Below, in pieces: positions 19,417 through 58,882 of a stretch of DNA of 64,000 nt. Each line of letters opens with the position of its first letter. The stretch's first letter is position 1. The stretch spans positions 182,764,312 through 182,828,311 of the forward strand of contig CM097886.1 in NCBI GenBank assembly GCA_044892525.1. The letters run 5' to 3'. Under the pieces are notes generated by a model, which was not told where the DNA came from, made no database searches, and saw only the letters and a program-made list of their open reading frames with translations. The stretch comes from Schmidtea polychroa (taxonomy: Eukaryota). The position numbers and the translations under genes are program-made.

Positions 19417-22309
19417 AAACGAATGATAAGATATAAGAAATATTTTTGAAACAAAATTTCCCCATCTCTATCCAGACATTTAATTGGCATTTCCAAATGA
19501 CATTTACCGAAAGCTTCATGCTAATCCGAATTAACTCCTGAATTGCAATTTTTTGTGACATAAACCTTTAGCTTTATTGTTTACAGGTATTCCAATTAAA
19601 TGATGAGCTCATTTCCAGATTTGCAATTATTAATATTATTTTTGCAAACAATGAAATTTATAAATAGCGAAATTATTATCTATTCGAAATTTACCTATTA
19701 AATTATTTATGGAAAATCAGAAAATTTTGTTTACAGTAATCATCAATTTAATATTAGATTTTACGCTAGATTTACGGAATGAGCGAATTTGACTCGTTTT
19801 TACATGTTATTGCTAATGTTGGGCTGAGTCGAAAGCTTGATCGTCAAATTTAGGACAGATAAGACGCGAACAAATAAAATAAGACCACAAATTGCTAAAA
19901 TAAATAAATCAAGAGACAAAAGAAACAATAACGTAAAATATTAAGATTAAAACAAAAAATAAAAAATAGAAAAATTAAAATAAGGTAATAAGATAAGGAA
20001 TAAAATGACGAAAAATGCAACAAATAATGAGGAATTTAAGAAACAAATAAAAAATATATTAAAATAAAGAAAAATAAGGAAAAACAACCAAAGAAATAAG
20101 AAAAACAAATTAATTTAAAAGTTAAAGCGGTACTCAATTTTTATTGGTCCTCATAAACAAAAAAATCCTATATAAGCAAACGGCAAATTCAATATAGTTA
20201 CTGTTTAACAAACACCATTACAGGTAAGCTCATAATTTTAAAAACTGACTGTTTAACAAACACCATTACAGATCAACACTCAACCATTACAGACGATCAC
20301 CGACGTACAACCTAAACGACTATCAGGGACAATTAGATTTTCAACTCAGTACAATAACCGAATTCAGCTTTTCGACTCAGCTTTTCGAGATCACAGATCG
20401 ATAAAGAATAAAGTAAGGATGTATTCTTATTATGAATTTGAGTAAATGTTTCTCATGGAAGTTAATAGTAATAATGTTTATTATCACAATTTTAATAAAA
20501 TTTTAATGTTCTCTCCATTTGGTCTCATATTTTAATAATCAAGTATTTTCAGTAATGAAATTTAAAGCCTTTTATGATAGATACTATGCATGATAATTTC
20601 GATTTTTATGGAATTTATATGAAAATTATGATCGAGTAACGTGGAGTTGAGGAGACCTGTACCATGGTGTGAGGAGCCTTCGGGAGCTCAGCCGGTGGGT
20701 ACAGGCTTCTTCAATCACGCAGCTGACGTGGGCCGGAAAGTGGGGGCTTCCTCACGGGTCCGTCGCTGAGGGAATTAAAATGTTGCAAGAATTAGCTGAC
20801 AATAACATAGAGTACCATTCGGATTTGACAATGAGAACGATCTTAAAAACAATGACTGAGGTGGCTACAAAACGTTTATTTTTCGAAACTCATCATCCTT
20901 AGCTGTTACATCTTGAATTCTTTACCTAATATCCGTGATTAGTCTGAATTGCCTAAGTGTACCAATCGACATTCCATCTTCTGAGTACCAAACCCTTTTC
21001 TGTTGAAATGCACGTCAATTTCCGTCTGACCTGTAGAAACTGAGTACCAACCCATTCGTCGACGCTATACAATCACATGAGAAGTATAGATGAAATTTAT
21101 TGGACACAATTTTTTAATAAGAAAATGTATTACGAAACTGTTTTATTTTTAACCAAATTATTTCGAAGTGTTCTGAAAATTACACTCACAGTAGGATAAA
21201 CTCCCTTCAGTGAAGGACACCTCCGATTGACCTTGTCAAATTGCAGATTTTTCGAATAAGTCGAAGGAAATGTCCACGAAATAAAGTTATCCAAGTAGAA
21301 AACACAATTAACTGCACATCGCGGGGAATAAATCCAACATTAGCGTTTGATGAGAGAGCAACCTAGATGACATATTGATTCCACGAATTGATTCGGCCCA
21401 GTGGTGTATTGCGATCATCTGCGAACGATAATTCCGATAATGAGCAAACATACGAGATAAATCACACGCACTAACACACTAGTACTTACTCACATATGCG
21501 ACAAGCAGTATTTTCCCAGTCAGCTACAAGTATTGAGAACCGAAATTGAAACACGCACATACAACAAGGTTGGCTCGGATAGATAGCAGGCTGCCTGTCT
21601 CATGCTTCCATTATCTGGCGTGACGAACTATTTTACATGAGATTAATCTTATTACAGGTGTTTCCCGACATACAATTAATTTCATCGTAGATTAAAATTT
21701 TAACTTGCAGGATGATAATTCCGAACATCAATAATAGATAACGGCCAGGTGATTAGTGTATATTCCAAACAATTTGGTATTAAACAGAGACCCAGCAGCT
21801 ATTGAGTGGAGATTAATTTTGCCTGCGCATCCGCTTGCCGAGGTGGGAATTCTGAGTTATGTCCTGGGGGAATAATGCGTTGGTTAAGGGGGAAATCGGA
21901 AGGCGTTAACAATAAAATTTTGTTTTCTGCGTTTGGTCTATTTCCAAAGATATTATTTGAAGGAATTATTAGTTATCGGCTCAATTTCGTTGTCCATTTT
22001 GTGTACAAGGAGGTTGGGCATCCCCGCATCTAATTAATTACGAATTTGTTTTGTTGTTTCTCCATTACACCAAGGGAAAGGGGGTCACGGCTTACAACTC
22101 GACCGGTAGATGACATTCGAATTTAATAATAATAACTCAGAGATTTTCTTCACCCATTAGCATAAATCCCTTCCTCTTAATATATTAGGACCACATCAAA
22201 ATTAATGTATAGCTTGTAGGAAAATTCATAGATGATTAGGCCACCAGGCTGGTTTAATAGACATAGCAAATCTTGTATTTTATCCTTATTGTTTCTTTCA
22301 TTATAGCCA

Positions 22310-23065
22310 TTGAGAATGTTACCAAGCTCGAAGTCGTCTCTCAAACCCTGCTTCTCATGCTCAGATAAGAATTCTATAATCAGGGATTTGCAAGCCCAGA
22401 TCGGTCGATACAAGAAAGCGATCGACCATCTGGAAGGTACATGGTTCAGCCCAGTACAAATGAAGGAGGTACAAAAGAAATTGTACCGAAGCGAGCACTG
22501 TCGCGACGCCTTAATAAGCGAGAGTAGGGCCCAACGCAGTCTTATCAAAGAGCAGTCCGAGGCTCTACACAAGGTCTACGTACAAGCGGCAGCAACTAGA
22601 AAGATAGTGAGTATACCTATCAATGGAGCGGACGACCTTTTCCCCGTCCATCATGAACTTCCTTCCAATTCGTCATCTTCGGCTAAGAAGCCCTGCCGGG
22701 AATGCGTGGAAGCCGATCTCTCTCCCAGGTCAACCATAGTGTCTCCCATTGGAGCCCAGAAAGGGTTATCATCGACCGCGTCTTCCTCTGTCGTACTATC
22801 AAACACCCTGATTGTTCCAAAACCCAAGCGTCGACAGTTGTCCAGAGCTGAGCGTAAAAAGCGTCAGCGCGAACGAGCAATCGCCAAACAAAGTGGACTA
22901 TCTGCCGAGCTCTCCAGTACTTCGAACGATCCCCCTGTAACGATCGATTTAACCGTAGGGATCCCAGGGCGAATCATCTCCGCCGCTGGTGTAACTTGGG
23001 AGGAGAATGCCTCCGAATTCTTCGAGCTGGAGGAGCTGTTAGCCGACGCAGAATGGGAAAAGTAA
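22310..23065 (+). CDS. LTR-encoded 251-aa protein of unknown function (coiled coil, two CxxC, basic NLS-like stretch)
   Basis: Open in both LTRs with identical peptide; KPKRRQLSRAERKKRQRER; AATAAA at ~23202. Confidence 0.65.
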   Translation: MRMLPSSKSSLKPCFSCSDKNSIIRDLQAQIGRYKKAIDHLEGTWFSPVQMKEVQKKLYRSEHCRDALISESRAQRSLIKEQSEALHKVYVQAAATRKIVSIPINGADDLFPVHHELPSNSSSSAKKPCRECVEADLSPRSTIVSPIGAQKGLSSTASSSVVLSNTLIVPKPKRRQLSRAERKKRQRERAIAKQSGLSAELSSTSNDPPVTIDLTVGIPGRIISAAGVTWEENASEFFELEELLADAEWEK

Positions 23066-23870
23066 AGCTCTCAATCCAATGCAACTACATCGATCATGTT
23101 TAGTAAATTGAACGATTCTGACTTATATGTTCTCGTAAACCGTCTTCCCTTGATTTATATTAGTCCTGTAGTTTTAACTGTATAGCGTACTATGATAGTA
23201 GAATAAAGAAATTTTCGTCATTTCTTATTGTTAGTTTTTGTTTGATTAGCCATTGTAAAGGTTCAGAGTAGTTTTTACAACCCAAGCGCAAACTTTAGTT
23301 CGAAAGGCATTAGACAATCTGTATATAACTCGGTGTCAGGTAGGGAAGGAAATGGTGGAGTGATCAGACGTAAGCCCTTCCATCGGCAGTCAGAAAAAGG
23401 AAGTCGAGGCCTCAGTAAGGAGTAGTCCTAAGGTAGGGGCTCACCTGCTTACTGGTGTCTCGCCGGCATAGCACATTTCCAACGTGGAGCAATTCACGGG
23501 TGCTATGTTGGAGTACAGGTTGTGCGGGGTCTTGCTCCGGATTGACGTAAGCACACTTAGCGTAAATGAATGGACACTCATCTCCTAGACAGGTGCGTAA
23601 ATGAGTTAAGGTCAATCAAGCACTACCCCAGCATGATTTTTGGGGGCTCAGCCGGGATTTATTATTGAATTTCCGTCGAATAGTGTGAATTCACCGGGAT
23701 TATGGATTTCAATTGATTGGCGAAGACAAATTGACTAATGCTTAGCGAATCTTATTATAAAACCACGATTAGGAAATAATAAAACTAAAGATACAAATAA
23801 AGTAAATTTAATAGTGGGGAAATGAGATAAAAGTAAAATAAGTTATAACGATCTTAAAAAGAAAAAATGC

Positions 23871-24416
23871 GTGATGAAACAACCATTAATTAGCTGTAGA
23901 TTATTAAAATATTTTCTTTTCCCAATAGATATGACGGAATTCGCAGAACAGATTCAACAATTAATCAATTTCATTAATATAGAAAACGACCATATTAAAA
24001 CACTCATACAAAAAAGAGAACGAATCAATAGCATTCTACTCCAAGCAATCGGACACACACCAGTCGTACCTAACCACGTGTTAATGGCCGCAGGTTTAAG
24101 CCGTCCAGAGGGTAAAATAAATCACGAAACGGTATATCAATGGTATGTAGAAAGACTAAAAAACCCGGCCCTGAACATAGAATACGAGCGAATAAAAGAT
24201 CAGTTACATACAATATCAGAGGCAATTGAACAAAGGATCCAAGAGAAACTCGCTGAATTACGAACTTGTCAGTCTTGCCACCTTCGCCCTATACGCGTAC
24301 TGTTCTTGCCTTGTGGACACCTCAGTCATTGTGAAGAATGCGTACAAGATCTGAAACGATGTACAATATGCAAACATGAGATAAAAGAAACCCATATGGT
24401 TTATTACGGTGATTAA
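23871..24416 (+). CDS. LTR-encoded coiled coil plus C-terminal IAP-type RING-HC protein (putative E3 ligase, no BIR)
   Basis: CQSC..PIRVLFLPCGHLSHCEECVQDLKRCTICKHEI matches the IAP RING pattern; followed by AATAAA. Confidence 0.88.
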   Translation: MMKQPLISCRLLKYFLFPIDMTEFAEQIQQLINFINIENDHIKTLIQKRERINSILLQAIGHTPVVPNHVLMAAGLSRPEGKINHETVYQWYVERLKNPALNIEYERIKDQLHTISEAIEQRIQEKLAELRTCQSCHLRPIRVLFLPCGHLSHCEECVQDLKRCTICKHEIKETHMVYYGD

Positions 24417-25056
24417 AAGGACTAAAAAGATGTGTTAATGTGTATGTGTATCGGATCAATAATGACAGTTAAAGATGAATGTATGTAATTTTAAGTGTAA
24501 AGTAGCATTAATGTTTAGTTTTAGTCTCATGATTAATAAAAGTTTTGTTGTGAATTGAATATTTTATCTTTTTTAATTATATTTTTTTTTGAGATCAAAT
24601 GGAGAAAAATAAATTTAACGTGGAATTAGTCCCAATATAGGATATAAGAGTACAAAATGAGCCACCTTCGGGCGGTACGTCCTATCATCAAAGCAACCCA
24701 TTGGGAGGGGATAACCGATCAACCCAAGTGAGGAGCGTAGGGCGGGGTACCATCGCAAATGATGAGAAGTTTCTGCGGTGTGACTGATCACCACGCCAAT
24801 GTGGAAATGGATCATCGCGATCGTCGTGCGTTTCGAGCAAGGGGGGAAAGGGGAACACTCCCAAGCGGTAAAGATTAAGTCGACAAATTAACAAGCAGAG
24901 ACGGAGAAATGACAATTTAGGGTAGAAGAAGGAAAAGAGAAGTAGAAGCATGCAGATTGAGAGATATTAAGACCGAGTTGTGAGAAGTCCAGCCGGTCAG
25001 GATAATGAAGATTGAGCTGTTGAAAAATGCCAGCCAGTCGTAAAGGCCTAGAAAAT

Positions 25057-25263: not shown

Positions 25264-26541
25264 AGTAAGACAGAATATTGAAGCTAGCTAGAAATGAATT
25301 GAACTAAATACGAGAATTCAAAGGTAGAGAGGACTAAACGAGCTCGTGATAGATGATAATAAAGCGTTAATGATAAAGAGAGATAGGGAAAGGAAAATAA
25401 ATTAAGAAGAGAGGGAAAAATAAAGAATAAGCGAGGATGACGATTAAGAGAATAATTAAATAATTAAAGGGATCCCAGTGGAGTAGAGAAACTCCGCAGA
25501 ATTTTTTTTGGTTTAACCGGGAAGATGATTTTTATTGGGTCTAGAGTAGAACCCAGGGAGAAAACAACCGACAGACAAGTAAAATAGCGACGACAGCGCC
25601 AGAAAATTAAGGATAAAGGGGGGTAATAAGCAGTGACCGACAACGACCTATTCATATTATAAGTATTAAAGATAGATGATTATTACGACTCTATAGATAA
25701 TTGTTACTACCCCATATAGATAATTCAAAATCGACGAAAAATACGGGCTGATGGGAAATTATAACCCGCGGAAATAATGGTATAAAGAATAGGGGAAGCA
25801 CAAACAGAAACCTAAAAGGTGTCTGTGTTTGAATGTTGCAGAAAGAATGATGAAGTCGTGTATGCAGATGCAACACGAGATCATTTTTTCATTTTAGATA
25901 GCAAACCAATCCAGTCAACCAAGCCAATCCAGAACCTGCACAAAAGGAATTCGAAGAAACCAACAACCAACCAGAGATAATCCATTCAGAACCCGCTCAA
26001 TAGGAGTAACACAACCCGAAGATTGTAATAACGGAAGACGATACAGATAACGACATCTCCAACTTCGAACGAATCACCGATATATTCAGCCTCGTTGTAT
26101 TAACAGCCATCAGCCAAGGACTCCTAAATCTCCTCAGAATATCATTAGTAGAAGCGTATAGAATATTCTTCGAAGGAAACACTATCAGAACAGAACTCGC
26201 CCAATTCGGTAGCCGCTAACCGTAGAAAACCCACGAGAAAAGACAGAGAAGCGTAAGAAGGAATCACGGATAAACCCAGCCTTAGATCTTCAAGTAAGCC
26301 AGGAGACGTATTATTTTCAGGAGACGAATTAGAACAACTCAAAAGAGGACGATCAATTAGACATCAGAGAGGGATATCACAAGGAGCAAGAAGAACCAAC
26401 AAAATACCAATATACGATCAAGAAAACCCCACAACCGGATATACGCCCAGTCGATCTAGAAGCAGAGATAGCCTATCCGATATCACAAACCACCTAACTG
26501 CGTCAACAGAAGCACTATCTGCCAATAGCCGGAGTACATCG

Positions 26542-27264
26542 TTGGATAATTTGAAAGAACCGATAGAAATTCAAGAACCAATCATGACGAGTGTGGTAAA
26601 AACCGACGAGTATAAGGAAAAATTTAGAGGTGAACCGTTCAACGGAAATGCAAACAAGTTGGCAACGTTCATAACCAACTTCGAAGTCTATATCGATGTG
26701 TGTGGATGGACATCCGAAGCAGTTAGTAAAAGGATGCCGTTGTTTTTGTGCGATAGCGCATTAGAAGTGTATTTAGAGGCTAAAGAAAGAAATACGAAAT
26801 TGGATAAATGGGATGATATCAAGACATTCCTGAAGAAAACATTTGGAGCTAGCAAACCAATAAATCAAGCACTTGGCGAACTGGCAAATAGGAAACAAAG
26901 AGCAAATGAATCAATTACATTATACGCCAGCGAATTACGGAGATTAGCAAAGAAAGCAATGAATGGAAAATTGCCAGAGGAAAATTTGATCAGCTATTTC
27001 ATAGAGGGATTACGCCGAGAAGTGAGAGCATCTGTAGGATGTCAAATGTGCGCTACATTAGAAGAGGCCATAGATTGGGGCACGAGATGTGAACTCCATC
27101 TTCCAGCACAAATGAATATTATGCAAGAAGATGGGAGGATAGCGACAGCCATAGTAAAAACTGATAATGGAGATAGCAACAACCAAGGACCAAAAATGAA
27201 CCAATTTATACACCGGAGCACATCAAATTTTCAAACCACCACAAGGACGATCAAATGGGAATAA
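26542..27264 (+). CDS. gag: Gag capsid domain (frame open from 26257; likely ATG 26584); upstream Gag region decayed
   Basis: FNGNANKLATFITNFE...LFLCDSALEVY...RKQRANESITLYASELRRLA...FIEGL fits the retrotransposon Gag capsid pattern. Confidence 0.85.
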   Translation: MDNLKEPIEIQEPIMTSVVKTDEYKEKFRGEPFNGNANKLATFITNFEVYIDVCGWTSEAVSKRMPLFLCDSALEVYLEAKERNTKLDKWDDIKTFLKKTFGASKPINQALGELANRKQRANESITLYASELRRLAKKAMNGKLPEENLISYFIEGLRREVRASVGCQMCATLEEAIDWGTRCELHLPAQMNIMQEDGRIATAIVKTDNGDSNNQGPKMNQFIHRSTSNFQTTTRTIKWE

Positions 27265-27334
27265 TAGTGATCGCAACAACCTGAATAATGGAAACAATTT
27301 TAATAATCGACGAAATACGAATAATAACAAACAG

Positions 27335-27487
27335 TGCCGAACATGTGGTAAATCAGGGCATTGGGACAGAGATTGTTATAGAAATGCAACGTGTAATCGT
27401 TGCGGACGACGGTGGCATACGGAGGGTATATGTCAAGCAAGAGCGTGTTACAACTGCGGACAATCAGGACATATCTCGAGAGAATGC
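27335..27487 (+). CDS. Three CCHC zinc knuckles (nucleocapsid), in frame with the 3148-aa ORF; absent from the ORF track because there is no start codon
   Basis: Manual translation CRTCGKSGHWDRDC / CNRCGRRWHTEGIC / CYNCGQSGHISREC; the frame is open from 27200. Confidence 0.92.
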
Positions 27488-27580: not shown

Positions 27581-30500
27581 ATGAACGTCATGCAAGAAAT
27601 TTCTCAAATGAAACAGATGATGCATCAATTGATGCGACCCAGATCAGAACCGGCACCTCAGCAAACACAGAATATACGTATGATGAGAAGCACCGAAAAC
27701 ATCAACGACTACGAGAGACAGCAACACGCGCAAGATTGGCAACGATTGCAAGCTGAGGAAGAGAGAATAAAGCAAGAACGCAACCAGCAACGACAAGAAC
27801 AACCATTTCGAATAAATATGCTGAAACTAGTAAAAGATATGAAAGATCAATATTGTTACAACTATGGGAAAAACCCAATAGGAGTACCCATAACTGAACC
27901 AGAAAAAGTGAAAGAAACAACAACGGAAATTCGACCAGAAAACTCAACAACGGTACTGAAAGGAAACCAAAGAATTCAGAAAATATTCTGGAAAAAGATA
28001 AAAGATAAAATCGAAAAAGAACATGACAAAGAGAAAACGGAGGTAAAAGATGAAAACAACAAAAATAAAGAACAAACCAGTCAAATAAGCCACGAAATGT
28101 TACAAGAATTGGAATCCGAAGAAACAACGATATTCGAAAATAAGCAATTAAAAAGAGTACCAAGGATGAGAAACTTACGAATCAACATGATGAAAAGGAC
28201 AAAAGATACGTCGTCATCAGATGAAGACTATGTGAGTAGTTTGGGTGGAGAAATACTACAACTAAACGAAGCTAGCGAACCTCCCAAAGGGAGAATTCAA
28301 GAGGAAGAGAGTGAAAGCGATGTAACCAGCGAAAGTGAGGACGAGGATATCGAAATAAAATTGAGAAAAGAAAGGGAGGAAGCGATAAAGGGAGTAGCTG
28401 AAATACTCCCAGTAGTAGTGAGGAACCAAGAGTTCATCGATATAATACCATTTAGACGATTCATACAGAAAGTGATGAAATTGGAAAGAAACGAGAAAGA
28501 CCTAATACCAAGCGAGGAAAAGTCGATAATAAAAAAGTATATGGAGAAAATGAAGCAAGCCGATACCACGCGGTATGTAATAAAAATCGGAACGAGTAAA
28601 GGGCTCGAAAGAATATGGATTAAAAATACCGTCACCGACGAACTTTTCGACTGGATACGAGAACATTTAGGTAGCTCGAGGAAAAAGGAGTACCTATATC
28701 AACATCAAGGAGAGCAGATTAAACCGGATATGCACTTGGTGGATGCACTAATATGGCCAGGAGAAACGCAAATATTAAAGCTGCATAAAGAAAAGCAAAC
28801 CGCCAACACCTATGAATGGGCAAAAGACGCTAAGGCCGAATACGACTTTAACATCAAACTGAAATTAGAACAAATAAAACAGTGTACTTTGAGACGAAAT
28901 CTGGATAAACTCATCAAACAAATCCAAGAACAAGTGGAAGATAACTGGGATTTACTCATAGCCAGACGAGCCCCAGAGATGCACGAACTAATGAGCAGAT
29001 TGCGCGATACAGAATTACTCAGAATGAGTGATTGGAGAACCATAAATTTAATCCATAAATATGGAAGGTTAAAAGAGACGCAACCACAGAAGCTAGAAAT
29101 AACCATATGGTTACCGAACGAGGAGAAACGACGAATGAAAATGAGTAATCAGAGCACGGTGGACAACTTGGTATCAAAAATAAACCAAGAAATAACGGAA
29201 AGGGTGCAACGGGAGAGTGATGATGGTATGATAGATGATGTAGTCATGATGTACGATAAAATAATACTACGAGCTGAGGACGACACCTCGTTGAGTGAAA
29301 TGGGCATGTGGGACGATCATCAAATAATCAGAATAGTACCAATGGATGAATTCCGAACGAGGGATATAACCTATCAAAAGGAAATACGAGATCGGATGAA
29401 GACGTTATATCAAAAATCAGTAGAAATAACTGAAATCCACCAACAATGGTTAAAAGAAAAGGAACTACAAGGAAAAATAACGAAACTAAGTACCAGATCC
29501 TGTAGACGAACCCCATGGGAAAGGGTATGGAACGCAGAAAAAAAGGAATGGGAAATCCGGAGAGGGATCTTCCTAGAAACAGATATCGAGGAGACGGATG
29601 AAGAGCCGGGGGAAGAGGAAGACGAACCTCCAGAGTACGAAGAAGAAGCAATAGAACAGACATCAGATGACGGGAGCGAGACGGATGTCACATCAGGAAG
29701 CGAAAATGAAGCCAGACATATCCATGCGATGAGAAAGAAGGAACGTGAATATGCCGATATAGACGGTGATGAGGCGAGGGAAGCGAGAGAACGAGAAGAG
29801 AAGGAGAGATATAAGCAACTAGGCGATATCTTAGAAATGGGGGCAAAGAATCAAAAAAGGCAAGTGATAGCACTGGCAAACTTCATCCTAAAAATATCAG
29901 ACAATATCCAGTATCTGAGAGAGATAGTAAAGACTATAGAGGAATACCGACAATATAATGAATGGTACCCAGAACAATTGGAGCAAATCATTGGGAAATG
30001 GCGAAACCACGAATGGTCACAAGACACCCAAGAAAGATATCGAATTCGAATTAAATACCCAGATAAAAATGTCGAGGAAGTAGAGGTACATCCAACCACA
30101 AAAATCAGAGAATTAAAAAAGAAATTGGCATATGAAACTCCATTCCATCTACAACTACAAGGAAAATCACTAGATGACAACGCAGACGTCGGGATAACAC
30201 CCATGAGGTTGGGAGAGACAAATGTATTGACAATGGCAGAAACATTGGGGAAACCGATAAAACGGAAAAGCAACAGTAGTAAACCAACAAAGGGTAGTTT
30301 GAGTACCCCAAGCCCAAATAAAGCACCGAGTAAATCAAATGAAACCGAGGAGGTTGAAGAGATTATCCTAGAAGATAGTGACGATGAACCAGGAGAAAGA
30401 ACGCCACTATTAGTGAGATGGCCAACGGGAGCCGAGATCTGGACAACAAGTAGACCGTCGACGAGTTATCAACAACCGGAGAAACTAAACATCGAGGGAA

Positions 30501-40953: not shown

Positions 40954-41019
40954 TCAAGGCCTAAAATTAAATGTAAATAACTGTAAATAAATATCGAACC
41001 TGTATCGATAAGAAATTAT

Positions 41020-42426: not shown

Positions 42427-42619
42427 CCAGGGTGAATAATGTTGTATATAATAAATTTGTATATATCGGTGTATATAACCTATAAAATAGTATATAATAA
42501 TAGTATGGGATCCACAAATACAACAACCCAAAACTGAAGCGAAAAATCCAGGAAAAACATCAACCGAATAATAAAATCCAATAATGCGATGATATTTAAT
42601 CAGAATCTATAATTTAGAA

Positions 42620-43675: not shown

Positions 43676-43847
43676 GGGCTAATAAAAACTTCAAAAAATT
43701 CAGAAATTGGGACCTATATCCCAAACAAAAAAATTAATAGTATGGTAAAAGTATTTAAGGGACTGTAACCCTGTGTAAATAAAAACGATATAAATGTATA
43801 AGTATAAGTCGCACTGTAGCGCATGATTAATTGTAAATATTATAGAT

Positions 43848-45480: not shown

Positions 45481-45977
45481 TGTTGGGCTGAGTCGAAAGC
45501 TTGATCGTCAAATTTAGGACAGATAAGACGCGAACAAATAAAATAAGACCACAAATTGCTAAAATAAATAAATCAAGAGACAAAAGAAACAATAACGTAA
45601 AATATTAAGATTAAAACAAAAAACAAAAAATAGAAAAATTAAAATAAGGTAATAAGATAAGGAATAAAATGACGAAAAATGCAACAAATAATGAGGAATT
45701 TAAGAAACAAATAAAAAATATATTAAAATAAAGAAAAATAAGGAAAAACAACCAAAGAAATAAGAAAAACAAATAAATTTAAAAGTTAAAGCGGTACTCA
45801 ATTTTGATTGGTCCGCATAAACAAAAAATTCCTATATAAGCAAACGGCAAATTCAATATAGTTACTGTTTAACAAACACCATTACAGGTAAGCTCATAAT
45901 TTTAAAAACTGACTGTTTAACAAACACCATTACAGATCAACACTCAACCATTACAGACGATCACCGACGTACAACCT
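45481..45977 (+). repeat. 3' LTR of the giant element, left piece (interrupted by the nested element)
   Basis: Matches 19817-20313. Confidence 0.92.
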
Positions 45978-46876
45978 TGTTGTGGTTGGGGCAGTCCGAT
46001 CTGGTATTTTGGCAATAGAATTTTCAGTAAGAGCATCGTCTAGATAACCGCCTTTCATAACATGACATAAGAGAACTTTATTGCGTTGCGAATTATGATT
46101 TTCGACAACTTTCATTCCATTCATTTCTTGGAATATTGGTTTCTGGTAATCAAATATACATTTGTTGCTAGTATTAACTGGCTTCCAATTAATTAATTCC
46201 TTATATGTATATAATGGTCGCATTTTTCTACAAATCGGCTGATAAAATTGAAAACTTATAAAATAAATCATAAAGAGTTAATGTCAGCTTTTATTTAATT
46301 ACCAAAATTTTTTTTGGAATATATAAACAAGCAAGGAAATCTTTTACAAAATTTATACATATAAGTAAACAAAATTACAAAAAATACAAAATTATATCAT
46401 TCGATAAAAAATAAACAGATTTTTAAAAATATATAATTTAAAAAGCTTACGATTTTATAAAGTTCGCGTAAGAATTTCACATAGTCAATTACTAATAAAT
46501 AAATGCAAAATAAACAAATTTAGGTTTTTATATTATTGTTAGGATTTGTTCCGTATTTCGCGAATTGTAATGGATGAGGGTGTTGGTCTATGAGAGCCAA
46601 CACTAAAACTATTGGGAGCCGAATACAGTTTATCTTGATAATGATAACATGGCATCGAATTTGCTTTACTCTTCTGAGATTGATTAATAGAGCCTGATTG
46701 ATAAGTAGAAGTATTAGCTGATCGCACGAATTTTGATTGACTGTTATTGTGTTCTGTTTGGTCCTTAGTCGCTGGTGACCGCGCATTTATATATATAATA
46801 TAATATCGTATAATATAATATAATATAGTATAATAGGTATATAGATATTGTTAAGGCCGTGTAACGGCTCACTACA
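45978..46876 (-). repeat. 3' LTR of the nested element
   Basis: Differs from 53037-53936 at two positions seen by eye (one substitution, one 1-bp indel). Confidence 0.95.
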
Positions 46877-47045
46877 TCAGCCCCACGGGAAGTCGCGGAG
46901 CGCACAGGGACTCAAGAATAGAGATTGATGAAAGATCTACTAGAAACAAGATGTAAGTCGAAAAGTAGTGACAATTTATGAAAGGTAGATAGTGTCTAAA
47001 AAGGAAATCGGTGATTGATGAATTAATTGATCACATGGAATAAAG

Positions 47046-50000: not shown

Positions 50001-50411
50001 GCTGCAGTTTAATTGATTATTTATCCTTAAAGTGCGTCCGCGGCAATCTACGAGTAGTTCGTTAGCGCTTAAAAAATCAGATCCTGATATGGGGATAATA
50101 ACCTCTGCTATATAAAATTTCCACTCAAATAATTGGTCGGACAGAAATGGCAACGAGAAAGCAATTGTCTTTGAACCTAAAGTCTCAACAACACTACCGT
50201 TTGCGGCCTTCAAAGAAATATCGACAGTGTTGAGGTCTGGAAGGTACTCTTTAGGTAAGATCGACAAGCTGGAACCAGTGTCGACAAGGAATTTTAGTCT
50301 GTTGGAAGGAGACGACAATATATTAAAAGCGTTTGACTCTGCTTCTATTAAAAATAAATCTGATTTCGATGAAATTTTGCCTCCCACCTCTGCCGCTAGA
50401 AGTGGTGGCAT
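47046..50411 (-). CDS. pol: Pol (PR-RT-RH-IN) of the nested element
   Basis: LVDTGSS, PCGDYRNLN, YIDD, TDAS, TDHKPL, HHCC, DLVD/TDRG/IERFHR, PRYSGPY. Confidence 0.97.
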   Translation of the reverse strand: MPPLLAAEVGGKISSKSDLFLIEAESNAFNILSSPSNRLKFLVDTGSSLSILPKEYLPDLNTVDISLKAANGSVVETLGSKTIAFSLPFLSDQLFEWKFYIAEVIIPISGSDFLSANELLVDCRGRTLRINNQLNCSTIPSNIFEDPQRIGTDDINTTPSKTVITIEHPKIALDIINRCFNTPISDVSKPLYCHTIDTTSSLPVRCKIRPLSNEKLEFVRSEFTNLLHEGTIRRSKSPWSSPLHLVPKKDGTFRPCGDYRNLNAITVHDSYSMPLVSDILHRLSKAKIFSTIDLVKAYHQIPVRESDIEKTAVITPIGLFEYVHMPFGLRNSAQTFQRYIDQVLMDLPFAVPYIDDILVGSPDLETHITHLTKTLTALRQYNLKVNVDKCTFFQHETRFLGHLISADGIRPPPDRLDTIAKFPLPKTVSQLRSFFGTINYCHRFIPGVSDILSPLSGLVSKPKKSLVSWSDTTLSAFENAKSALSKIQTLHFPNADLPWSLTTDASNVAIGAVLHQLHNDISEPLEFFSKKLSSAQRKYSAFDRELLGIYLSIKHFKHLLEGRPFVIYTDHKPLTYLFGMKDPSPRQQRQISYISEFSCEIRHIAGKENVIADCLSRSTNAILHDPIFPVQCLRDNPPSAKDLAAFGDKLEIVDGVHFDSSLSGVLRPILHDSLRKLAFHSIHDLHHPGSSATFNLLHSHVVWPAMRHDIKLWVSQCIGCQQHKITRHTKPQMIHYPTRNRFEILHIDLVDPLPSDHGFSYLLTMIDRKTRWFEVIPLKNISAEIVANSILQHWISRYGVPKSIITDRGSQFESQLFQQLTEKLGIQHLRSTAYHPQTNGMIERFHRTLKTSLGILSSRLNWTKALPFVLLGWRNTPSRTTGTTPAQLLFGSSTSLPNELVDFDNAPTFEELDMARDHFLSIDSNPQFSYASSYTPYVPKSFKDATHVYLRNITDSGLKPRYSGPYKLIDIKDNNAHIVINGVTQNINLCRLKPAFMISDDVDEDKLHSDLEKVSVEPISTTSNENLSVEPATDSNEIVRTMITNYQRDENLATENTHSATTNPLNLRSIVSKPDKQRTAKNVKHSDKIWVRQIGEDISKPPRLARVYSNENLTHLMLKFT

Positions 50412-51757
50412 TATAAGTTTTTTTGATTGCTTGCTTTAGGTTTTGTGTAATTGGAGCAGCCTTCGAAGCATTTTAAGGCTTTATCTCCAAACCTGTCGTG
50501 GTATATGCACTTGTCAAGTATCTGACAGGATGGTGCTTTATCTCGCCAATTGCAACCTAGATAGCAGAACCGTGCCTTGTTACGAAACTTAAAATGGAAA
50601 CGGCACAGGTTCCTGGTTGCAGGGGAAGGTGAACGTTGACGAGTATTTTGCACGAAGTGTGATTTTTGGGCATATTGCCTGTCGTCATTTGTCTGCCTGG
50701 TGGACATGCTATTCTCAAGCTCGCTGATGCGTTTAGTGAGGCCTGTAATAGCGCAAAGTAAGGCTTCTTCGGTCGAAGGTTTTAAAGAAGAAGGTAAAAT
50801 TTCGGGGTTAGTGCTGCTACTTAACTGCACAGAGCAAGTTGGTTGCGGACCAAGTGGCACGACTTCGTTAATCTTGTCGGCCATCTTTGCTAGCTCTACC
50901 ACGTCTGCTGTTGACGAAAGCGCTAAAATTTGTTGTGCGTGTGGCGGTAAAGCAGACAGAAAAAATTGCCTCAAGAGTTTTTGATCCGCCGCAGCCTCCG
51001 GGTGTATTTGCGTTAGTTCCGCCATAGCGTGTTGCAAGAACTGTGATGGTTTTCTGCTGCCCAAAGTTTGCGTCTTGAAGTATTTAGTGAAGACGGCAGC
51101 TGTAGGTTCCTTAAAAATATCGAGGATTGCCGTACGCAATTCTTCATATGGGTTTTTTACGCTAGTAGGCGAAGTGCGAAGGATCACGGACGAAAGTTTA
51201 CTTAATATCGTCGGCGGAATCAACGGCAAGATGCGACAGTATTTGTCTCGTGAACTGGTTACCTCGATTCCCTCGAGTGCTAGTTCGGTAGCTATCAGCC
51301 AAGTAAGTAGAGAGTTATTCTCATCCAAAAAATATTGACATAAGTACGTTGATCGCTGGTTGTTGGACCTACGCTTATGTTTTGCCTGTTTGGGGTTGCT
51401 GCATGAGTCATTCTCCGAATCGGAGGAACCGCCAGAAAGTGGCAACAAACAATGAATGACGCTGTATGGTGTCACTCCATAGTCGCCCAAGGTACGACTG
51501 TCGGAAAGGATGTTGCCGTTATACGACAAGAGAAAATGGCATTTGTGATTAGTCAATGTCCTGTAATTTTTAGAAAGACCTTTAATTGTAGTGTCTGTGT
51601 CAACTGAAACGGTTTGTGTCTTATTTGTTCCAGGGTTTTCTATTAATATTTGGAACTTTTTGGGCCCCGGTGCGGCGCTACCCTCTCGTGTGGGCTGATG
51701 CTTATTTATATAATTTTTTATAATTTTATATATGATATCAATAATAATATAAATCAA
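50411..51757 (-). CDS. gag: Gag with N-terminal ubiquitin-like domain and two CHCC zinc motifs
   Basis: Ubl at 51655-51428 ending LPLSGG; capsid PYEELRTAIL...LGSRKPSQFL...LRQFFLSALP; two Cx2Hx9Cx3C motifs. Confidence 0.9.
   Translation of the reverse strand: MIYIIIDIIYKIIKNYINKHQPTREGSAAPGPKKFQILIENPGTNKTQTVSVDTDTTIKGLSKNYRTLTNHKCHFLLSYNGNILSDSRTLGDYGVTPYSVIHCLLPLSGGSSDSENDSCSNPKQAKHKRRSNNQRSTYLCQYFLDENNSLLTWLIATELALEGIEVTSSRDKYCRILPLIPPTILSKLSSVILRTSPTSVKNPYEELRTAILDIFKEPTAAVFTKYFKTQTLGSRKPSQFLQHAMAELTQIHPEAAADQKLLRQFFLSALPPHAQQILALSSTADVVELAKMADKINEVVPLGPQPTCSVQLSSSTNPEILPSSLKPSTEEALLCAITGLTKRISELENSMSTRQTNDDRQYAQKSHFVQNTRQRSPSPATRNLCRFHFKFRNKARFCYLGCNWRDKAPSCQILDKCIYHDRFGDKALKCFEGCSNYTKPKASNQKNL
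50417..50423 (-). other. Probable -1 ribosomal frameshift site A AAA AAC at the gag-pol junction (also a TAATG stop/start overlap)
   Basis: Minus strand CAA AAA AAC TTA TAA TG; pol is in the -1 frame relative to gag. Confidence 0.75.
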
Positions 51758-53330
51758 TAATAATATAGTATAATTTAATAATAATATAATTTAGAGGTAA
51801 TCGATCTAAGGTACCTGGCGGTGCTGACACGGGCATTGCTCTATTGAGTCTCGATTCGCTGGGAGACGGTTTATTATCGTGAATAAATGGCTGTCCCGGT
51901 GCACGAGAGTTTAATGTGAAAAAATCATTATTCTGTTGCATTAAGAATTCATTTGGATTTGGTCGAAGCATGATGCGTTGTGGGGCTGTGTGTAAGACAT
52001 CACTCGTTAGCGATTTGTTATTTGGTATATAATTATTGATCGGAGTCATTTTTTGACGATTTTCAACGGCAATCATCTCAGCCAATGCTTGCCGGGAAAC
52101 ATTAATCGAATCAAAATCTATATCGGCTGTATCTTTATATTTCTGATCGTAATGTGAGTTCGGTTTCTCCGAGCCAAATATGCGATTTATATCCATTTCG
52201 TTTCGATACTGATACTGACCGTAGTTAAGCACACCGTTGTTGTTTGCCTGTTGATTGATGTTGTGATCGTATGACTGATTATTATTGTTGTTATTGTTGA
52301 TTGCGGCGTGGTTTTGAGAATTTAAATGGTAGAAACTTTCCAGCAGAGAATTCGACGAACCAACTGAATTCAAACTGTTCATAAATGATTTCTGATCTGA
52401 AACTCCTGACAGGGGAGGTGTGGAATTCAGTGTACTGTGGAATTCAGTAATATCATTAACAACTGAGCTATTGAAAGCACTGAATAGGGGAAATTCGGAT
52501 TTAATATCCGATGATTCAGATTGTAATTGAATACTTTTATTGATAAATTTGAAAGACGATTTATTTATCGGGTCAGCAATTTGAAATTGACCATTTGGGA
52601 TATGATTATTATCTGTGATATTTGCAGGGGTTGAAATGGAATTACTTGATGATGTAGACTGCTGTAATTCTTTATAATACATATTTAAATCCTTACATAG
52701 AACGACTACAGGATCCACAGAATCACGATCTAGAATTGTCTGAATTAATTTGATATACTCTTCTCGATTCGATGACAAACAACAGGAATGAGCAATTATC
52801 AAATGATCTATCAGCCTATCAATATCATGGGATATAAGATTAAATTTTGATGAAAGTTTTAATTCAGAAAATATTTTGGAAAGCATATGGAACATATTTT
52901 GACGTAATTCCGCTGTTCGTTTATGAGAAACTAACATAGATTGTATTTCCTGTAATCTGGATTTAACAATGATATTAGATAAATAAGTTTCTAATTGTTC
53001 AAATCTTGAACATTGTTCTGGCACTTCTGACACCAATGTTGTGGTTGGGGCAGTCCGATCTGGTATTTTGGCAATAGAATTTTCAGTAAGAGCATCGTCT
53101 AGATAACCGCCTTTCATAACATGACATAAGAGAACTTTATTGCGTTGCGAATTATGATTTTCGACAACTTTCATTTCATTCATTTCTTGGAATATTGGTT
53201 TCTGGTAATCAAATATACATTTGTTGCTAGTATTAACTGGCTTCCAATTAATTAATTCCTTATATGTATATAATGGTCGCATTTTTCTACAAATCGGCTG
53301 ATAAAATTGAAAACTTATAAAATAAATCAT
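51738..53330 (-). CDS. Extra ORF0 starting inside the 5' LTR: ENGase (GH85) N-terminal fragment fused to an unknown helical, N/S/Q-rich region
   Basis: 530 open codons crossing the LTR end and PBS; LYTYKELINWKP and SQRNKVLLCHVMKGGYLDD match ENGase LSSLEELLAWKP and SQRPRTLLCHDMMGGYLDD. Confidence 0.7.
   Translation of the reverse strand: MIYFISFQFYQPICRKMRPLYTYKELINWKPVNTSNKCIFDYQKPIFQEMNEMKVVENHNSQRNKVLLCHVMKGGYLDDALTENSIAKIPDRTAPTTTLVSEVPEQCSRFEQLETYLSNIIVKSRLQEIQSMLVSHKRTAELRQNMFHMLSKIFSELKLSSKFNLISHDIDRLIDHLIIAHSCCLSSNREEYIKLIQTILDRDSVDPVVVLCKDLNMYYKELQQSTSSSNSISTPANITDNNHIPNGQFQIADPINKSSFKFINKSIQLQSESSDIKSEFPLFSAFNSSVVNDITEFHSTLNSTPPLSGVSDQKSFMNSLNSVGSSNSLLESFYHLNSQNHAAINNNNNNNQSYDHNINQQANNNGVLNYGQYQYRNEMDINRIFGSEKPNSHYDQKYKDTADIDFDSINVSRQALAEMIAVENRQKMTPINNYIPNNKSLTSDVLHTAPQRIMLRPNPNEFLMQQNNDFFTLNSRAPGQPFIHDNKPSPSESRLNRAMPVSAPPGTLDRLPLNYIIIKLYYIIIDLYYY
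53022..53035 (-). promoter_or_regulatory. Primer-binding site, tRNA-Leu(CAA)
   Basis: TGGTGTCAGAAGTG one base after the 5' LTR, complementary to the tRNA-Leu 3' end CACTTCTGACACCA. Confidence 0.9.
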
Positions 53331-53936
53331 AAAGAGTTAATGTCAGCTTTTATTTAAATTACCAAAATTTTTTTTGGAATATATAAACAAGCAAGGAAAT
53401 CTTTTACAAAATTTATACATATAAGTAAACAAAATTACAAAAAATACAAAATTATATCATTCGATAAAAAATAAACAGATTTTTAAAAATATATAATTTA
53501 AAAAGCTTACGATTTTATAAAGTTCGCGTAAGAATTTCACATAGTCAATTACTAATAAATAAATGCAAAATAAACAAATTTAGGTTTTTATATTATTGTT
53601 AGGATTTGTTCCGTATTTCGCGAATTGTAATGGATGAGGGTGTTGGTCTATGAGAGCCAACACTAAAACTATTGGGAGCCGAATACAGTTTATCTTGATA
53701 ATGATAACATGGCATCGAATTTGCTTTACTCTTCTGAGATTGATTAATAGAGCCTGATTGATAAGTAGAAGTATTAGCTGATCGCACGAATTTTGATTGA
53801 CTGTTATTGTGTTCTGTTTGGTCCTTAGTCGCTGGTGACCGCGCATTTATATATATAATATAATATCGTATAATATAATATAATATAGTATAATAGGTAT
53901 ATAGATATTGTTAAGGCCGTGTAACGGCTCACTACA
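53037..53936 (-). repeat. 5' LTR of the nested element
   Basis: Followed by the PBS; TG...CA ends. Confidence 0.95.
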
Positions 53937-55937
53937 AACCTAAACGACTATCAGTGACAATTAGATTTTCAACTCAGTACAATAACCGAATTCAGCTTTT
54001 CGACTCAGCTTTTCGAGATCACAGATCGATAAAGAATAAAGTAAGGATGTATTCTTATTATGAATTTGAGTAAATGTTTCTCATGGAAGTTAATAGTAAT
54101 AATGTTTATTATCACAATTTTAATAAAATTTTAATGTTCTCTCCATTTGGTCTCATATTTTAATAATCAAGTATTTTCAGTAATGAAATTTAAAGCCTTT
54201 TATGATAGATACTATGCATGATAATTTCGATTTTTATGGAATTTATATGAAAATTATGATCGAGTAACGTGGAGTTGAGGAGACCTGTACCATGGTGTGA
54301 GGAGCCTTCGGGAGCTCAGCCGGTGGGTACAGGCTTCTTCAATCACGCAGCTGACGTGGGCCGGAAAGTGGGGGCTTCCTCACGGGTCCGTCGCTGAGGG
54401 AATTAAAATGTTGCAAGAATTAGCTGACAATAACATAGAGTACCATTCGGATTTGACAATGAGAACGATCTTAAAAACAATGACTGAGGTGGCTACAAAA
54501 CGTTTATTTTTCGAAACTCATCATCCTTAGCTGTTACATCTTGAATTCTTTACCTAATATCCGTGATTAGTCTGAATTGCCTAAGTGTACCAATCGACAT
54601 TCCATCTTCTGAGTACCAAACCCTTTTCTGTTGAAATGCACGTCAATTTCCGTCTGACCTGTAGAAACTGAGTACCAACCCATTCGTCGACGCTATACAA
54701 TCACATGAGAAGTATAGATGAAATTTATTGGACACAATTTTTTAATAAGAAAATGTATTACGAAACTGTTTTATTTTTAACCAAATTATTTCGAAGTGTT
54801 CTGAAAATTACACTCACAGTAGGATAAACTCCCTTCAGTGAAGGACACCTCCGATTGACCTTGTCAAATTGCAGATTTTTCGAATAAGTCGAAGGAAATG
54901 TCCACGAAATAAAGTTATCCAAGTAGAAAACACAATTAACTGCACATCGCGGGGAATAAATCCAACATTAGCGTTTGATGAGAGAGCAACCTAGATGACA
55001 TATTGATTCCACGAATTGATTCGGCCCAGTGGTGTATTGCGATCATCTGCGAACGATAATTCCGATAATGAGCAAACATACGAGATAAATCACACGCACT
55101 AACACACTAGTACTTACTCACATATGCGACAAGCAGTATTTTCCCAGTCAGCTACAAGTATTGAGAACCGAAATTGAAACACGCACATACAACAAGGTTG
55201 GCTCGGATAGATAGCAGGCTGCCTGTCTCATGCTTCCATTATCTGGCGTGACGAACTATTTTACATGAGATTAATCTTATTACAGGTGTTTCCCGACATA
55301 CAATTAATTTCATCGTAGATTAAAATTTTAACTTGCAGGATGATAATTCCGAACATCAATAATAGATAACGGCCAGGTGATTAGTGTATATTCCAAACAA
55401 TTTGGTATTAAACAGAGACCCAGCAGCTATTGAGTGGAGATTAATTTTGCCTGCGCATCCGCTTGCCGAGGTGGGAATTCTGAGTTATGTCCTGGGGGAA
55501 TAATGCGTTGGTTAAGGGGGAAATCGGAAGGCGTTAACAATAAAATTTTGTTTTCTGCGTTTGGTCTATTTCCAAAGATATTATTTGAAGGAATTATTAG
55601 TTATCGGCTCAATTTCGTTGTCCATTTTGTGTACAAGGAGGTTGGGCATCCCCGCATCTAATTAATTACGAATTTGTTTTGTTGTTTCTCCATTACACCA
55701 AGGGAAAGGGGGTCACGGCTTACAACTCGACCGGTAGATGACATTCGAATTTAATAATAATAACTCAGAGATTTTCTTCACCCATTAGCATAAATCCCTT
55801 CCTCTTAATATATTAGGACCACATCAAAATTAATGTATAGCTTGTAGGAAAATTCATAGATGATTAGGCCACCAGGCTGGTTTAATAGACATAGCAAATC
55901 TTGTATTTTATCCTTATTGTTTCTTTCATTATAGCCA

Positions 55938-56693
55938 TTGAGAATGTTACCAAGCTCGAAGTCGTCTCTCAAACCCTGCTTCTCATGCTCAGATAAGAAT
56001 TCTATAATCAGGGATTTGCAAGCCCAGATCGGTCGATACAAGAAAGCGATCGACCATCTGGAAGGTACATGGTTCAGCCCAGTACAAATGAAGGAGGTAC
56101 AAAAGAAATTGTACCGAAGCGAGCACTGTCGCGACGCCTTAATAAGCGAGAGTAGGGCCCAACGCAGTCTTATCAAAGAGCAGTCCGAGGCTCTACACAA
56201 GGTCTACGTACAAGCGGCAGCAACTAGAAAGATAGTGAGTATACCTATCAATGGAGCGGACGACCTTTTCCCCGTCCATCATGAACTTCCTTCCAATTCG
56301 TCATCTTCGGCTAAGAAGCCCTGCCGGGAATGCGTGGAAGCCGATCTCTCTCCCAGGTCAACCATAGTGTCTCCCATTGGAGCCCAGAAAGGGTTATCAT
56401 CGACCGCGTCTTCCTCTGTCGTACTATCAAACACCCTGATTGTTCCAAAACCCAAGCGTCGACAGTTGTCCAGAGCTGAGCGTAAAAAGCGTCAGCGCGA
56501 ACGAGCAATCGCCAAACAAAGTGGACTATCTGCCGAGCTCTCCAGTACTTCGAACGATCCCCCTGTAACGATCGATTTAACCGTAGGGATCCCAGGGCGA
56601 ATCATCTCCGCCGCTGGTGTAACTTGGGAGGAGAATGCCTCCGAATTCTTCGAGCTGGAGGAGCTGTTAGCCGACGCAGAATGGGAAAAGTAA
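55938..56693 (+). CDS. Second copy of the LTR-encoded 251-aa protein
   Basis: Identical translation to 22310-23065. Confidence 0.65.
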   Translation: MRMLPSSKSSLKPCFSCSDKNSIIRDLQAQIGRYKKAIDHLEGTWFSPVQMKEVQKKLYRSEHCRDALISESRAQRSLIKEQSEALHKVYVQAAATRKIVSIPINGADDLFPVHHELPSNSSSSAKKPCRECVEADLSPRSTIVSPIGAQKGLSSTASSSVVLSNTLIVPKPKRRQLSRAERKKRQRERAIAKQSGLSAELSSTSNDPPVTIDLTVGIPGRIISAAGVTWEENASEFFELEELLADAEWEK

Positions 56694-57498
56694 AGCTCTC
56701 AATCCAATGCAACTACATCGATCATGTTTAGTAAATTGAACGATTCTGACTTATATGTTCTCGTAAACCGTCTTCCCTTGATTTATATTAGTCCTGTAGT
56801 TTTAACTGTATAGCGTACTATGATAGTAGAATAAAGAAATTTTCGTCATTTCTTATTGTTAGTTTTTGTTTGATTAGCCATTGTAAAGGTTCAGAGTAGT
56901 TTTTACAACCCAAGCGCAAACTTTAGTTCGAAAGGCATTAGACAATCTGTATATAACTCGGTGTCAGGTAGGGAAGGAAATGGTGGAGTGATCAGACGTA
57001 AGCCCTTCCATCGGCAGTCAGAAAAAGGAAGTCGAGGCCTCAGTAAGGAGTAGTCCTAAGGTAGGGGCTCACCTGCTTACTGGTGTCTCGCCGGCATAGC
57101 ACATTTCCAACGTGGAGCAATTCACGGGTGCTATGTTGGAGTACAGGTTGTGCGGGGTCTTGCTCCGGATTGACGTAAGCACACTTAGCGTAAATGAATG
57201 GACACTCATCTCCTAGACAGGTGCGTAAATGAGTTAAGGTCAATCAAGCACTACCCCAGCATGATTTTTGGGGGCTCAGCCGGGATTTATTATTGAATTT
57301 CCGTCGAATAGTGTGAATTCACCGGGATTATGGATTTCAATTGATTGGCGAAGACAAATTGACTAATGCTTAGCGAATCTTATTATAAAACCACGATTAG
57401 GAAATAATAAAACTAAAGATACAAATAAAGTAAATTTAATAGTGGGGAAATGAGATAAAAGTAAAATAAGTTATAACGATCTTAAAAAGAAAAAATGT

Positions 57499-58044
57499 GT
57501 GATGAAACAACCATTAATTAGCTGTAGATTATTAAAATATTTTCTTTTCCCAATAGATATGACGGAATTCGCAGAACAGATTCAACAATTAATCAATTTC
57601 ATTAATATAGAAAACGACCATATTAAAACACTCATACAAAAAAGAGAACGAATCAATAGCATTCTACTCCAAGCAATCGGACACACACCAGTCGTACCTA
57701 ACCACGTGTTAATGGCCGCAGGTTTAAGCCGTCCAGAGGGTAAAATAAATCACGAAACGGTATATCAATGGTATGTAGAAAGACTAAAAAACCCGGCCCT
57801 GAACATAGAATACGAGCGAATAAAAGATCAGTTACATACAATATCAGAGGCAATTGAACAAAGGATCCAAGAGAAACTCGCTGAATTACGAACTTGTCAG
57901 TCTTGCCACCTTCGCCCTATACGCGTACTGTTCTTGCCTTGTGGACACCTCAGTCATTGTGAAGAATGCGTACAAGATCTGAAACGATGTACAATATGCA
58001 AACATGAGATAAAAGAAACCCATATGGTTTATTACGGTGATTAA
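57499..58044 (+). CDS. Second copy of the LTR-encoded IAP-type RING protein
   Basis: Identical translation to 23871-24416. Confidence 0.88.
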   Translation: MMKQPLISCRLLKYFLFPIDMTEFAEQIQQLINFINIENDHIKTLIQKRERINSILLQAIGHTPVVPNHVLMAAGLSRPEGKINHETVYQWYVERLKNPALNIEYERIKDQLHTISEAIEQRIQEKLAELRTCQSCHLRPIRVLFLPCGHLSHCEECVQDLKRCTICKHEIKETHMVYYGD

Positions 58045-58882
58045 AAGGACTAAAAAGATGTGTTAATGTGTATGTGTATCGGATCAATAATGACAGTTAA
58101 AGATGAATGTATGTAATTTTAAGTGTAAAGTAGCATTAATGTTTAGTTTTAGTCTCATGATTAATAAAAGTTTTGTTGTGAATTGAATATTTTATCTTTT
58201 TTAATTATATTTTTTTTTTGAGATCAAATGTACTACCCCAGCACTAATTATACAGAAATAATAATAATTCATCACAGTACCAAAGTAGTGTGGTTATATA
58301 CCCAACCAAAACAGCCCCCCAACAAAAACATGCCTCCAAATCACTTAAGCTATTAGAAAAACAACCTAAAACTTATACTTTTATAGTATTTTAACCCTAT
58401 ATTTTGAAAACAACCACCCTTAATGACTCTAACTGTTTTAATCTTTAAAGCCTCAAACTCAAAAGCTTCAAACTAAAAAGAGAATAGAAAAGAAAATGGC
58501 ATTATGAAAAGTTAGAGGGCTATTTGATCTTTATCAGATTATTGATTTTAAATTATATAAATTAAAAAATAAATGAAAAATAGTAAAACTGCTCTGAGGG
58601 GACAGTGGTATTTTTTTTTTTTTTTTTCACTGTCCCCTCAACAGTTTTTTTTGATCCGGATCATTTTTTTTATTTATCAACCTCTTTCGTTTATCGAATC
58701 TCTTCCAATATACAAGCTGGCCAGACTCATACATCAGAATCAATCCGATAATAGCAGTACACCTTATTATTCGCTTCTCGCTCGAATACGATTTCATCGG
58801 CGTTTTAAGTGTGGTGCTCGAAAGTACAAATGAATTCGAAAGCGAATTCGAAAGAGGTCCGAAAACAACTGAGAAATAAATG

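Follow-up and report, generated by a model that had tools for sequence, protein, structure and literature searches.

The 64,000-nucleotide stretch of Schmidtea polychroa DNA analyzed here (NCBI GenBank assembly GCA_044892525.1, contig CM097886.1, positions 182,764,312 to 182,828,311 of the forward strand; referred to below as the window) holds a giant plus-strand Ty3/Gypsy long terminal repeat (LTR) element. Its left end was placed at position 19817 by self-comparison of the window and terminal motifs, and its net length is ~29.5 kb once a nested 8-kb Gypsy element is subtracted. We consider it probable (roughly 70%) that this element, as a young and broken copy, belongs to a high-copy Burro-like family in which purifying selection has maintained the envelope (Env) and cargo genes and whose likely mode of spread is by enveloped particles passing between cells. 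An initial annotation, made from the sequence alone, had proposed a complex retrovirus-like Gypsy element with host-control-type cargo, and this core proposal holds: the cargo is integral to all 10 other copies that we read and is under purifying selection. The architecture is known, and its function is left open in the published account (PMC6431247). What the family adds is that its copies are very young, that the polyprotein frame is open in many of them, and that selection on the Env, Bcl-2-like, ubiquitin-like (Ubl), and TRAF regions is nearly as strong as that on Pol; these properties therefore make it a good system for questions about Burro particles and cell death in a regeneration model.

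Polyprotein, family copies, and selection

A Pfam scan took in 20 open reading frames (ORFs) of the window, 11 of them in the giant element. As the initial annotation had claimed, Gag-Pol is joined to an Env-like glycoprotein. The gag capsid region (26257 to 27264, on the plus strand like all features of the element; Retrotrans_gag, E = 2.4e-12) is followed by three CCHC zinc knuckles (27335 to 27487; Pfam and sequence), and the envelope (31364 to 33169) matches PF24664, the Monjiviricetes fusion glycoprotein, with an E value of 2.8e-70. The envelope comprises a signal-like stretch, an ectodomain with 14 cysteines, and a transmembrane helix (33107 to 33163), and it lies in frame between gag and pol. 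From 33764 to 37027, Pfam matches and motifs mark the protease (PR; DTG), a dUTPase-like spacer, the reverse transcriptase (RT; YIDD), RNase H (RH), and the integrase (IN), a block that ends in an in-frame stop. The PR-RT spacer of ~90 amino acids (aa) is conserved, and its likeness to dUTPase is one of position alone, with no Pfam match. The region from 37028 to 40429 encodes the integrase C terminus, ankyrin repeats (matched by Pfam, in agreement with the initial annotation), and two hydrophobic segments, and it forms the end of the polyprotein in the family. These two segments, which close the polyprotein at 39400 to 40429, are possibly a second membrane protein. The PR-RT-RH-IN order with catalytic motifs, the TG...CA LTRs, the primer site, and the target duplication are those of Ty3/Gypsy elements.

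Three breaks interrupt the window copy. A frameshift near 27,210 cuts the gag capsid region off from the rest of the polyprotein, and stops lie at 37025 to 37027 and 37427 to 37429. The frameshifted site is in frame in all five other copies that span it, and in 10 of 10 other copies the frame continues through the positions of both stops; therefore, the family encodes one polyprotein and the window copy is defective. In relatives, Gag, the knuckles, three Ubl regions, the Bcl-2-like region, Env, PR, RT, RH, IN, and the ankyrins share a single 4,732-codon frame. By hand count, this frame occurs in 59 of 150 scored matches to the Bcl-2-like region, and the same length recurs among matches selected by RT.

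The 10 other copies were picked from the 40 other TRAF matches of a DNA search (41 matches from the best 40 of 402 candidates) and read stretch by stretch. The ankyrin region, small coiled coil, TRAF, two coiled coils, membrane ORF, and LTR ORF follow one another in the same order in all 10, some of which carry breaks of their own. The upstream RING ORF is present in the five copies whose 5' internal part was covered; four others have internal deletions, and one was out of range. In a protein search with the Bcl-2-like region, the best 150 of 976 candidates were all 93 to 100% identical, and the LTR pairs of six copies are 99.75 to 100% alike. The family is young and high copy, with at least 150 matches.

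Envelope and cargo are under purifying selection. Pairwise Nei-Gojobori ratios of nonsynonymous to synonymous divergence (dN/dS), computed between the window and 3 of the 10 copies, were 0.01 to 0.07 for Pol (0.01 to 0.03 for RT, RH, and IN), 0.05 to 0.07 for Env, 0.02 for the Bcl-2-like region, and 0.01 to 0.09 for the Ubl regions. Values for the remaining cargo were 0.08 to 0.11 for TRAF, 0.06 to 0.13 for the ankyrin region, and 0.03 to 0.20 for the coiled coils, with the highest in the RING ORF (0.12 to 0.25) and the membrane ORF (0.28 to 0.38); across envelope and cargo, most ratios lie between 0.02 and 0.16. No ratio is given for the LTR ORF or for one of the coiled-coil comparisons, where synonymous divergence was saturated. 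Contigs of four sequencing runs, which we guess to be of RNA, cover 30, 26, 12, and 1 of 30 bins along the element, with no convincing splice joint.

Accessory genes and domains

The complete, intronless TRAF (40987 to 42426; RING, zinc fingers, coiled coil, and MATH, by Pfam and PDB) stands as initially annotated: it is one 479-codon ORF in which Pfam recognizes RING and MATH, and both ends match solved TRAF1-6 chains. Its MATH domain shares at most 57 of ~140 residues (about 40%) with any of 30 other genomic MATH loci. In a tree that used these 30 of 150 MATH matches, the element TRAF MATH falls outside a 21-row expanded MATH clade (100/99), on long branches elsewhere. We read the element TRAF as an old capture. 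A planarian TRAF expansion has been reported (PMC6109357); since the 21-row clade excludes the TRAFs of the element, a role for them in seeding that host expansion is unsupported.

Upstream, a small ORF (23826 to 24416) ends in a C-terminal RING of the IAP/MDM2-type class (zf-C3HC4_3, E = 9.9e-11) and has at least 150 genome matches at 72 to 100% identity. No BIR domain was found by Pfam in any of the 11 element ORFs scanned, so the "IAP-type" label of the initial annotation applies to the class of the RING only. The remaining cargo ORFs are a small coiled coil just ahead of TRAF (40567 to 40953), a coiled coil that is Smc-like by composition and has no Pfam match (42593 to 43675), another coiled coil (43827 to 44552), and a small membrane protein (44592 to 45227). 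These ORFs are present as first annotated and keep their order in all 10 copies, with the coiled coils called from composition.

Between the knuckles and Env, three Ubl domains and a Bcl-2-like region had been proposed, and they fare unequally. Ubl3 (30032 to 30244) has a Pfam ubiquitin match (E = 2.5e-4) that is under the cut-off. Ubl2 (29090 to 29341) is predicted to adopt a beta-grasp; its model aligns to SUMO2 with a Z score of 9.4 and a root-mean-square deviation of 2.5 over 76 residues, and its structure-atlas neighbors at 0.85 to 0.89 are Ubl clusters, which we treat as a lead only. Ubl1 (28574 to 28786) is the weak member, with beta-grasp-like secondary structure, a model confidence (pLDDT) of ~50, and an hhalign match to Ubl3 at E = 0.009 and a probability of 4.6%. 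The top Foldseek match for Ubl1 and Ubl2 together is the PI3K p110 subunit, which has two beta-grasp domains. Capture of a PI3K N terminus was rejected, because a profile comparison with host p110 gave a probability of 0.16%. The N terminus of a host class I PI3K p110 lies at L164:1471-2340 in a 1,026-codon frame without introns.

The diverged Bcl-2-like domain (30782 to 31279), with a BH2-like GGW, is moderately supported by Pfam and profile. Pfam gives E = 0.045 in the window and 2e-5 in a homolog at the equivalent place of a related family. When a seven-row profile was compared with PDB, all 60 best of 108 matches belonged to the Bcl-2 family (best E = 0.0012), over the BH2 stretch only. 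The single-sequence model is poor (pLDDT 52), and a fold search with it gave generic helical matches, with no Bcl-2 protein among the top 50. Single-sequence PDB searches gave nothing useful, no representatives of the Ubl-Bcl-2 region were matched in protein databases, and searches of these databases with the Bcl-2-like region and Env found no homologs.

Relatives, Burro, and the proposed life cycle

A MATH search found a sister family in the same genome (L144-L151) with ~5-kb LTRs and with MATH inside a ~4,790-codon frame. Besides a BIR-RING ORF (BIR E = 9.4e-16) and a complete TRAF ORF, it has counterparts, likewise ordered, to the RING, coiled-coil, and all three Ubl regions by homology. 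The two families share 343 of 385 RT-RH residues (89%) and 360 of 611 Env residues (59%), and they form a clade at 100/99 in a tree of eight in-genome rows; compact Gag-Ubl-Bcl-2-Env families stand further off (RT-RH 49%). Among the lower-ranked of the 150 MATH matches, two frame lengths, 487 and 4,791 codons, recur in many cases, and both belong to the sister family; counts of planarian TRAF and MATH genes include element cargo.

The initial annotation regarded the combination of domains as undescribed, and this does not hold, since PMC6431247 already gives the domain set, the in-frame env, and the hypothesis for Burro. There, Burro1/GYPSM1 has a 4,873-aa ORF1 that holds Gag, three CCHC knuckles, MATH_TRAF_C, Ubi2/SUMO-like, and BCL2 domains, a dUTPase-like segment, and, placed in frame between gag and pol, an Env with kinship to the fusion proteins of mononegaviruses. 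Motifs of the RING, Smc, BIR, and ankyrin types are also reported, and Burro elements are proposed as likely proviruses that meddle with apoptosis and ubiquitination. In the literature searched, this is the sole domain-level account of Burro; the part of PMC11410931 available merely mentions the name.

As far as that description goes, the window family and Burro are alike as giant Gypsy elements with an ORF of ~4,700 to 4,900 aa containing Gag, three CCHC knuckles, Ubl, Bcl-2-like, in-frame Env, and PR-RT-RH-IN regions, and with ankyrin, RING, TRAF/MATH, and coiled-coil cargo. The size is Burro-like (~29.5 kb, slightly under ">30 kb", with 3.8-kb LTRs and at least 150 matches), and the family has the single ORF (4,732 codons, Env in frame between Gag and PR), the order of Ubl and then Bcl-2-like regions ahead of Env (Bcl-2 moderate, Ubl1 weak), and the ankyrin, RING, MATH/TRAF, and coiled-coil cargo (the last by composition). 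Unlike the Burro1/GYPSM1 described there, it lacks MATH in the polyprotein and BIR, and it has a 3.8-kb LTR and a total of ~29.5 kb. By Pfam, ORF1 contains MATH_TRAF_C in the sister family and lacks it in the window. PMC6431247 names neither three Ubl domains nor a complete separate TRAF, yet the Burro1-type sister family has homologs of both. Compared by description, the sister family fits the published Burro1, and the window family is a new member of the Burro-like clade other than Burro1 itself; it may correspond to Burro-2, Burro-3, or Burro-4, or be orthologous to one of them. The same source outlines a Burro-like element from Dugesia tigrina, which resembles the window family in carrying MATH/TRAF in an accessory ORF outside ORF1 and Gag-Env-Pol in one frame. 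It differs in that its accessory ORF is upstream and its 5,140-aa ORF1 has two knuckles, whereas the window has TRAF downstream and three knuckles.

A second comparison is with the six GAG-ENV-POL elements catalogued from Schmidtea mediterranea (PMC13524379, available portion). Smed_errantivirus_5 and Smed_errantivirus_6, of the GAG-ENV-POL HSV/gB type, share with the window family a gB/chuvirus-type Env between gag and pol, and the window family likewise has many near-identical copies. By eye, the window Env is closest to that of Smed_errantivirus_5 (26 of the first 50 aligned residues), about half identical and thus a different element; the sister-family Env matches Smed_errantivirus_6 at 35 of 50 residues. 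Accessory cargo and LTRs are not part of the descriptions of these two elements in the portion available.

In the proposed life cycle, the 5' LTR would drive one long RNA, and the resulting polyprotein would be threaded once through the membrane of the endoplasmic reticulum: the Env signal would send only the ectodomain into the lumen, the transmembrane helix would stop transfer, and Gag-Ubl-Bcl-2 and Pol would remain cytoplasmic, to be released by signal peptidase and the protease of the element. The Env signal stretch might also anchor the Bcl-2-like domain to the membrane. Enveloped particles would then move to neighboring stem or germ cells; particle transfer between cells is established for Drosophila gypsy (PMC13524379, available portion). 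The Bcl-2-like, TRAF, and RING products may help the producer cell to survive and weaken death or immune signaling, with the Ubl, ankyrin, and coiled-coil modules acting as adaptors or decoys.

Several points weigh against this reading. Purifying selection shows that the genes serve the element and is not proof of action on host death pathways or of an intercellular Env. The Env ectodomain, on inspection of its sequence, has no furin-type site and just one sequon. The copies were chosen by a TRAF search, and the presence of TRAF in the 10 copies is therefore by construction. At 14.7 bits, the Bcl-2 match in the window falls short of the 31.4-bit cut-off, and support for Ubl1 and the Bcl-2 fold is weak to moderate. 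In the available part of PMC8532177, BURRO1 is de-repressed in differentiated tissue after smedwi-2 RNA interference (RNAi), and BURRO1 RNAi did not rescue smedwi-2(RNAi) animals, with no host effect on record there.

A stronger version, in which the family acts as an infectious and currently active complex retrovirus-like agent of a flatworm, has been published as a hypothesis, and we regard it as tentative and rather doubtful. Here, dozens of copies whose 4,732-codon frame is open would yield enveloped particles that travel from somatic cells to stem or germ cells, and TRAF, the RING ligase, and a Bcl-2 mimic would act in producer cells like the genes of large DNA viruses, blocking death and TNF-type signaling. 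Conversely, the element may be a purely intracellular retrotransposon whose particles stay in the cell, with Env as a membrane tether or a structural part of the polyprotein. Env is fused in frame with Gag and Pol and must stay open anyway, and transmission is unknown for most GAG-ENV-POL-type elements (PMC13524379, available portion). However, an open frame alone needs no dN/dS of 0.05 to 0.07 over 621 Env codons, and the signal, the 14 cysteines, and the transmembrane helix are all kept in an Env that is 59% identical to that of the sister family; we consider an intracellular existence unlikely.

It is about equally improbable that the element uses its cargo for its own assembly and for protein turnover, as RING ligases, Ubl tags, and scaffolds, and not to steer host death or immune signaling. 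Three Ubl domains do lie within Gag, the unrelated nested Gypsy also has a Ubl ahead of gag, and the window family has no BIR; but without host partners it is difficult to account for a complete TRAF and for a Bcl-2-like domain conserved to the same degree as RT, and the sister family adds a BIR-RING gene. The possibility that the window copy alone acquired its cargo ORFs as passengers, either from host genes or as nested insertions, is refuted for practical purposes, even though this locus contains both a nested insertion and a right end with a rearrangement of its own. The same ORFs are neither absent elsewhere nor separately nested (same order in 10 of 10 copies), they have low dN/dS, their homologs in the sister family follow one another in that order too, and the TRAF MATH shares no more than 57 of ~140 residues with any of the 30 other MATH loci compared.

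Element ends and neighboring elements

The element is flanked by a 4-bp target-site duplication, CTAA (left, 19813 to 19816; right, 58244 to 58247), that encloses 19817 to 58243; 4-bp duplications also surround four other copies in which both ends were read. The 5' LTR (19817 to 23633; TGTTGGG...CCCCAGCA) is 3,817 bp long, not ~4.8 kb as initially annotated. A primer-binding-site-like motif (23641 to 23658), which may resemble tRNA-Pro, begins 7 nt past the LTR end, an arrangement seen also in five other copies, and the RING ORF, once assigned to the LTR, sits past this site in the internal region. The 3' LTR is in two pieces (45481 to 45977, from self-comparison, and 53942 to 57261, from self-comparison and terminal motifs), and it differs from the 5' LTR by 6 mismatches in 3,817 sites. 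Five of these six differences fall within 205 bp (19960 to 20165 versus 45624 to 45829), upstream of a TATA-like site at 20169, and this clustering suggests conversion or a template switch. A 252-codon ORF inside the LTR (22307 to 23065; second copy, 55935 to 56693) has no family match in Pfam; it is open in all 10 copies, with 67% identity between subfamilies and saturated synonymous sites.

The left end given initially stands, and the right end shifts from 58230 to 58243. What had been taken for an extension of the LTR is a segment private to this locus (57262 to 58243), in which an extra ~970-bp copy of the post-LTR region 23634 to 24601, with its primer site and RING ORF, is followed by the last 13 nt of an LTR. 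This junction occurs once in the genome. One sequencing contig bridges it without difference, and an assembly error is therefore unlikely, although that run may be a source of the assembly. Elsewhere, family matches recur every ~26.2 to 26.4 kb, the length of the element minus one LTR (C4:46.24-46.29 Mb, C2:177.69-177.72 Mb, and C1:72.66-72.68 Mb). These loci are likely tandem arrays of head-to-tail copies sharing an LTR, and from this spacing we infer that the right end of the window copy likely derives from a deleted tandem dimer.

The single 30-kb element of the initial annotation is right in net length (~29.5 kb), and the segment from 45978 to 53936 within its span is a separate insertion with its own 5-bp duplication (AACCT). 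This minus-strand, 8-kb Gypsy sits in the 3' LTR of the giant element, is no part of it, and has 900-bp LTRs, a Ubl-gag, pol, and a 532-codon ORF without a Pfam match. It is young, as its LTRs differ at one site and one gap, and a ubiquitin domain is fused ahead of its gag (E = 1e-8). Its RT is just 37% identical to that of the giant element, and Ubl-gag therefore occurs in a second lineage.

Two further elements flank the locus. To the left (161 to 7019, minus strand) lies a broken non-LTR retrotransposon with RT, a zinc-finger region, a hint of a Ulp1-like protease, and internal tandem duplications. To the right (58284 to 64000) is a Polinton/Maverick-like element with a double-jelly-roll capsid, an integrase with a PLA2-like domain, an A32 ATPase, and an adenovirus pX-like ORF; another copy of the giant element (L011-L012) carries an insertion of a relative that is 94 to 99% identical and has inverted ends.

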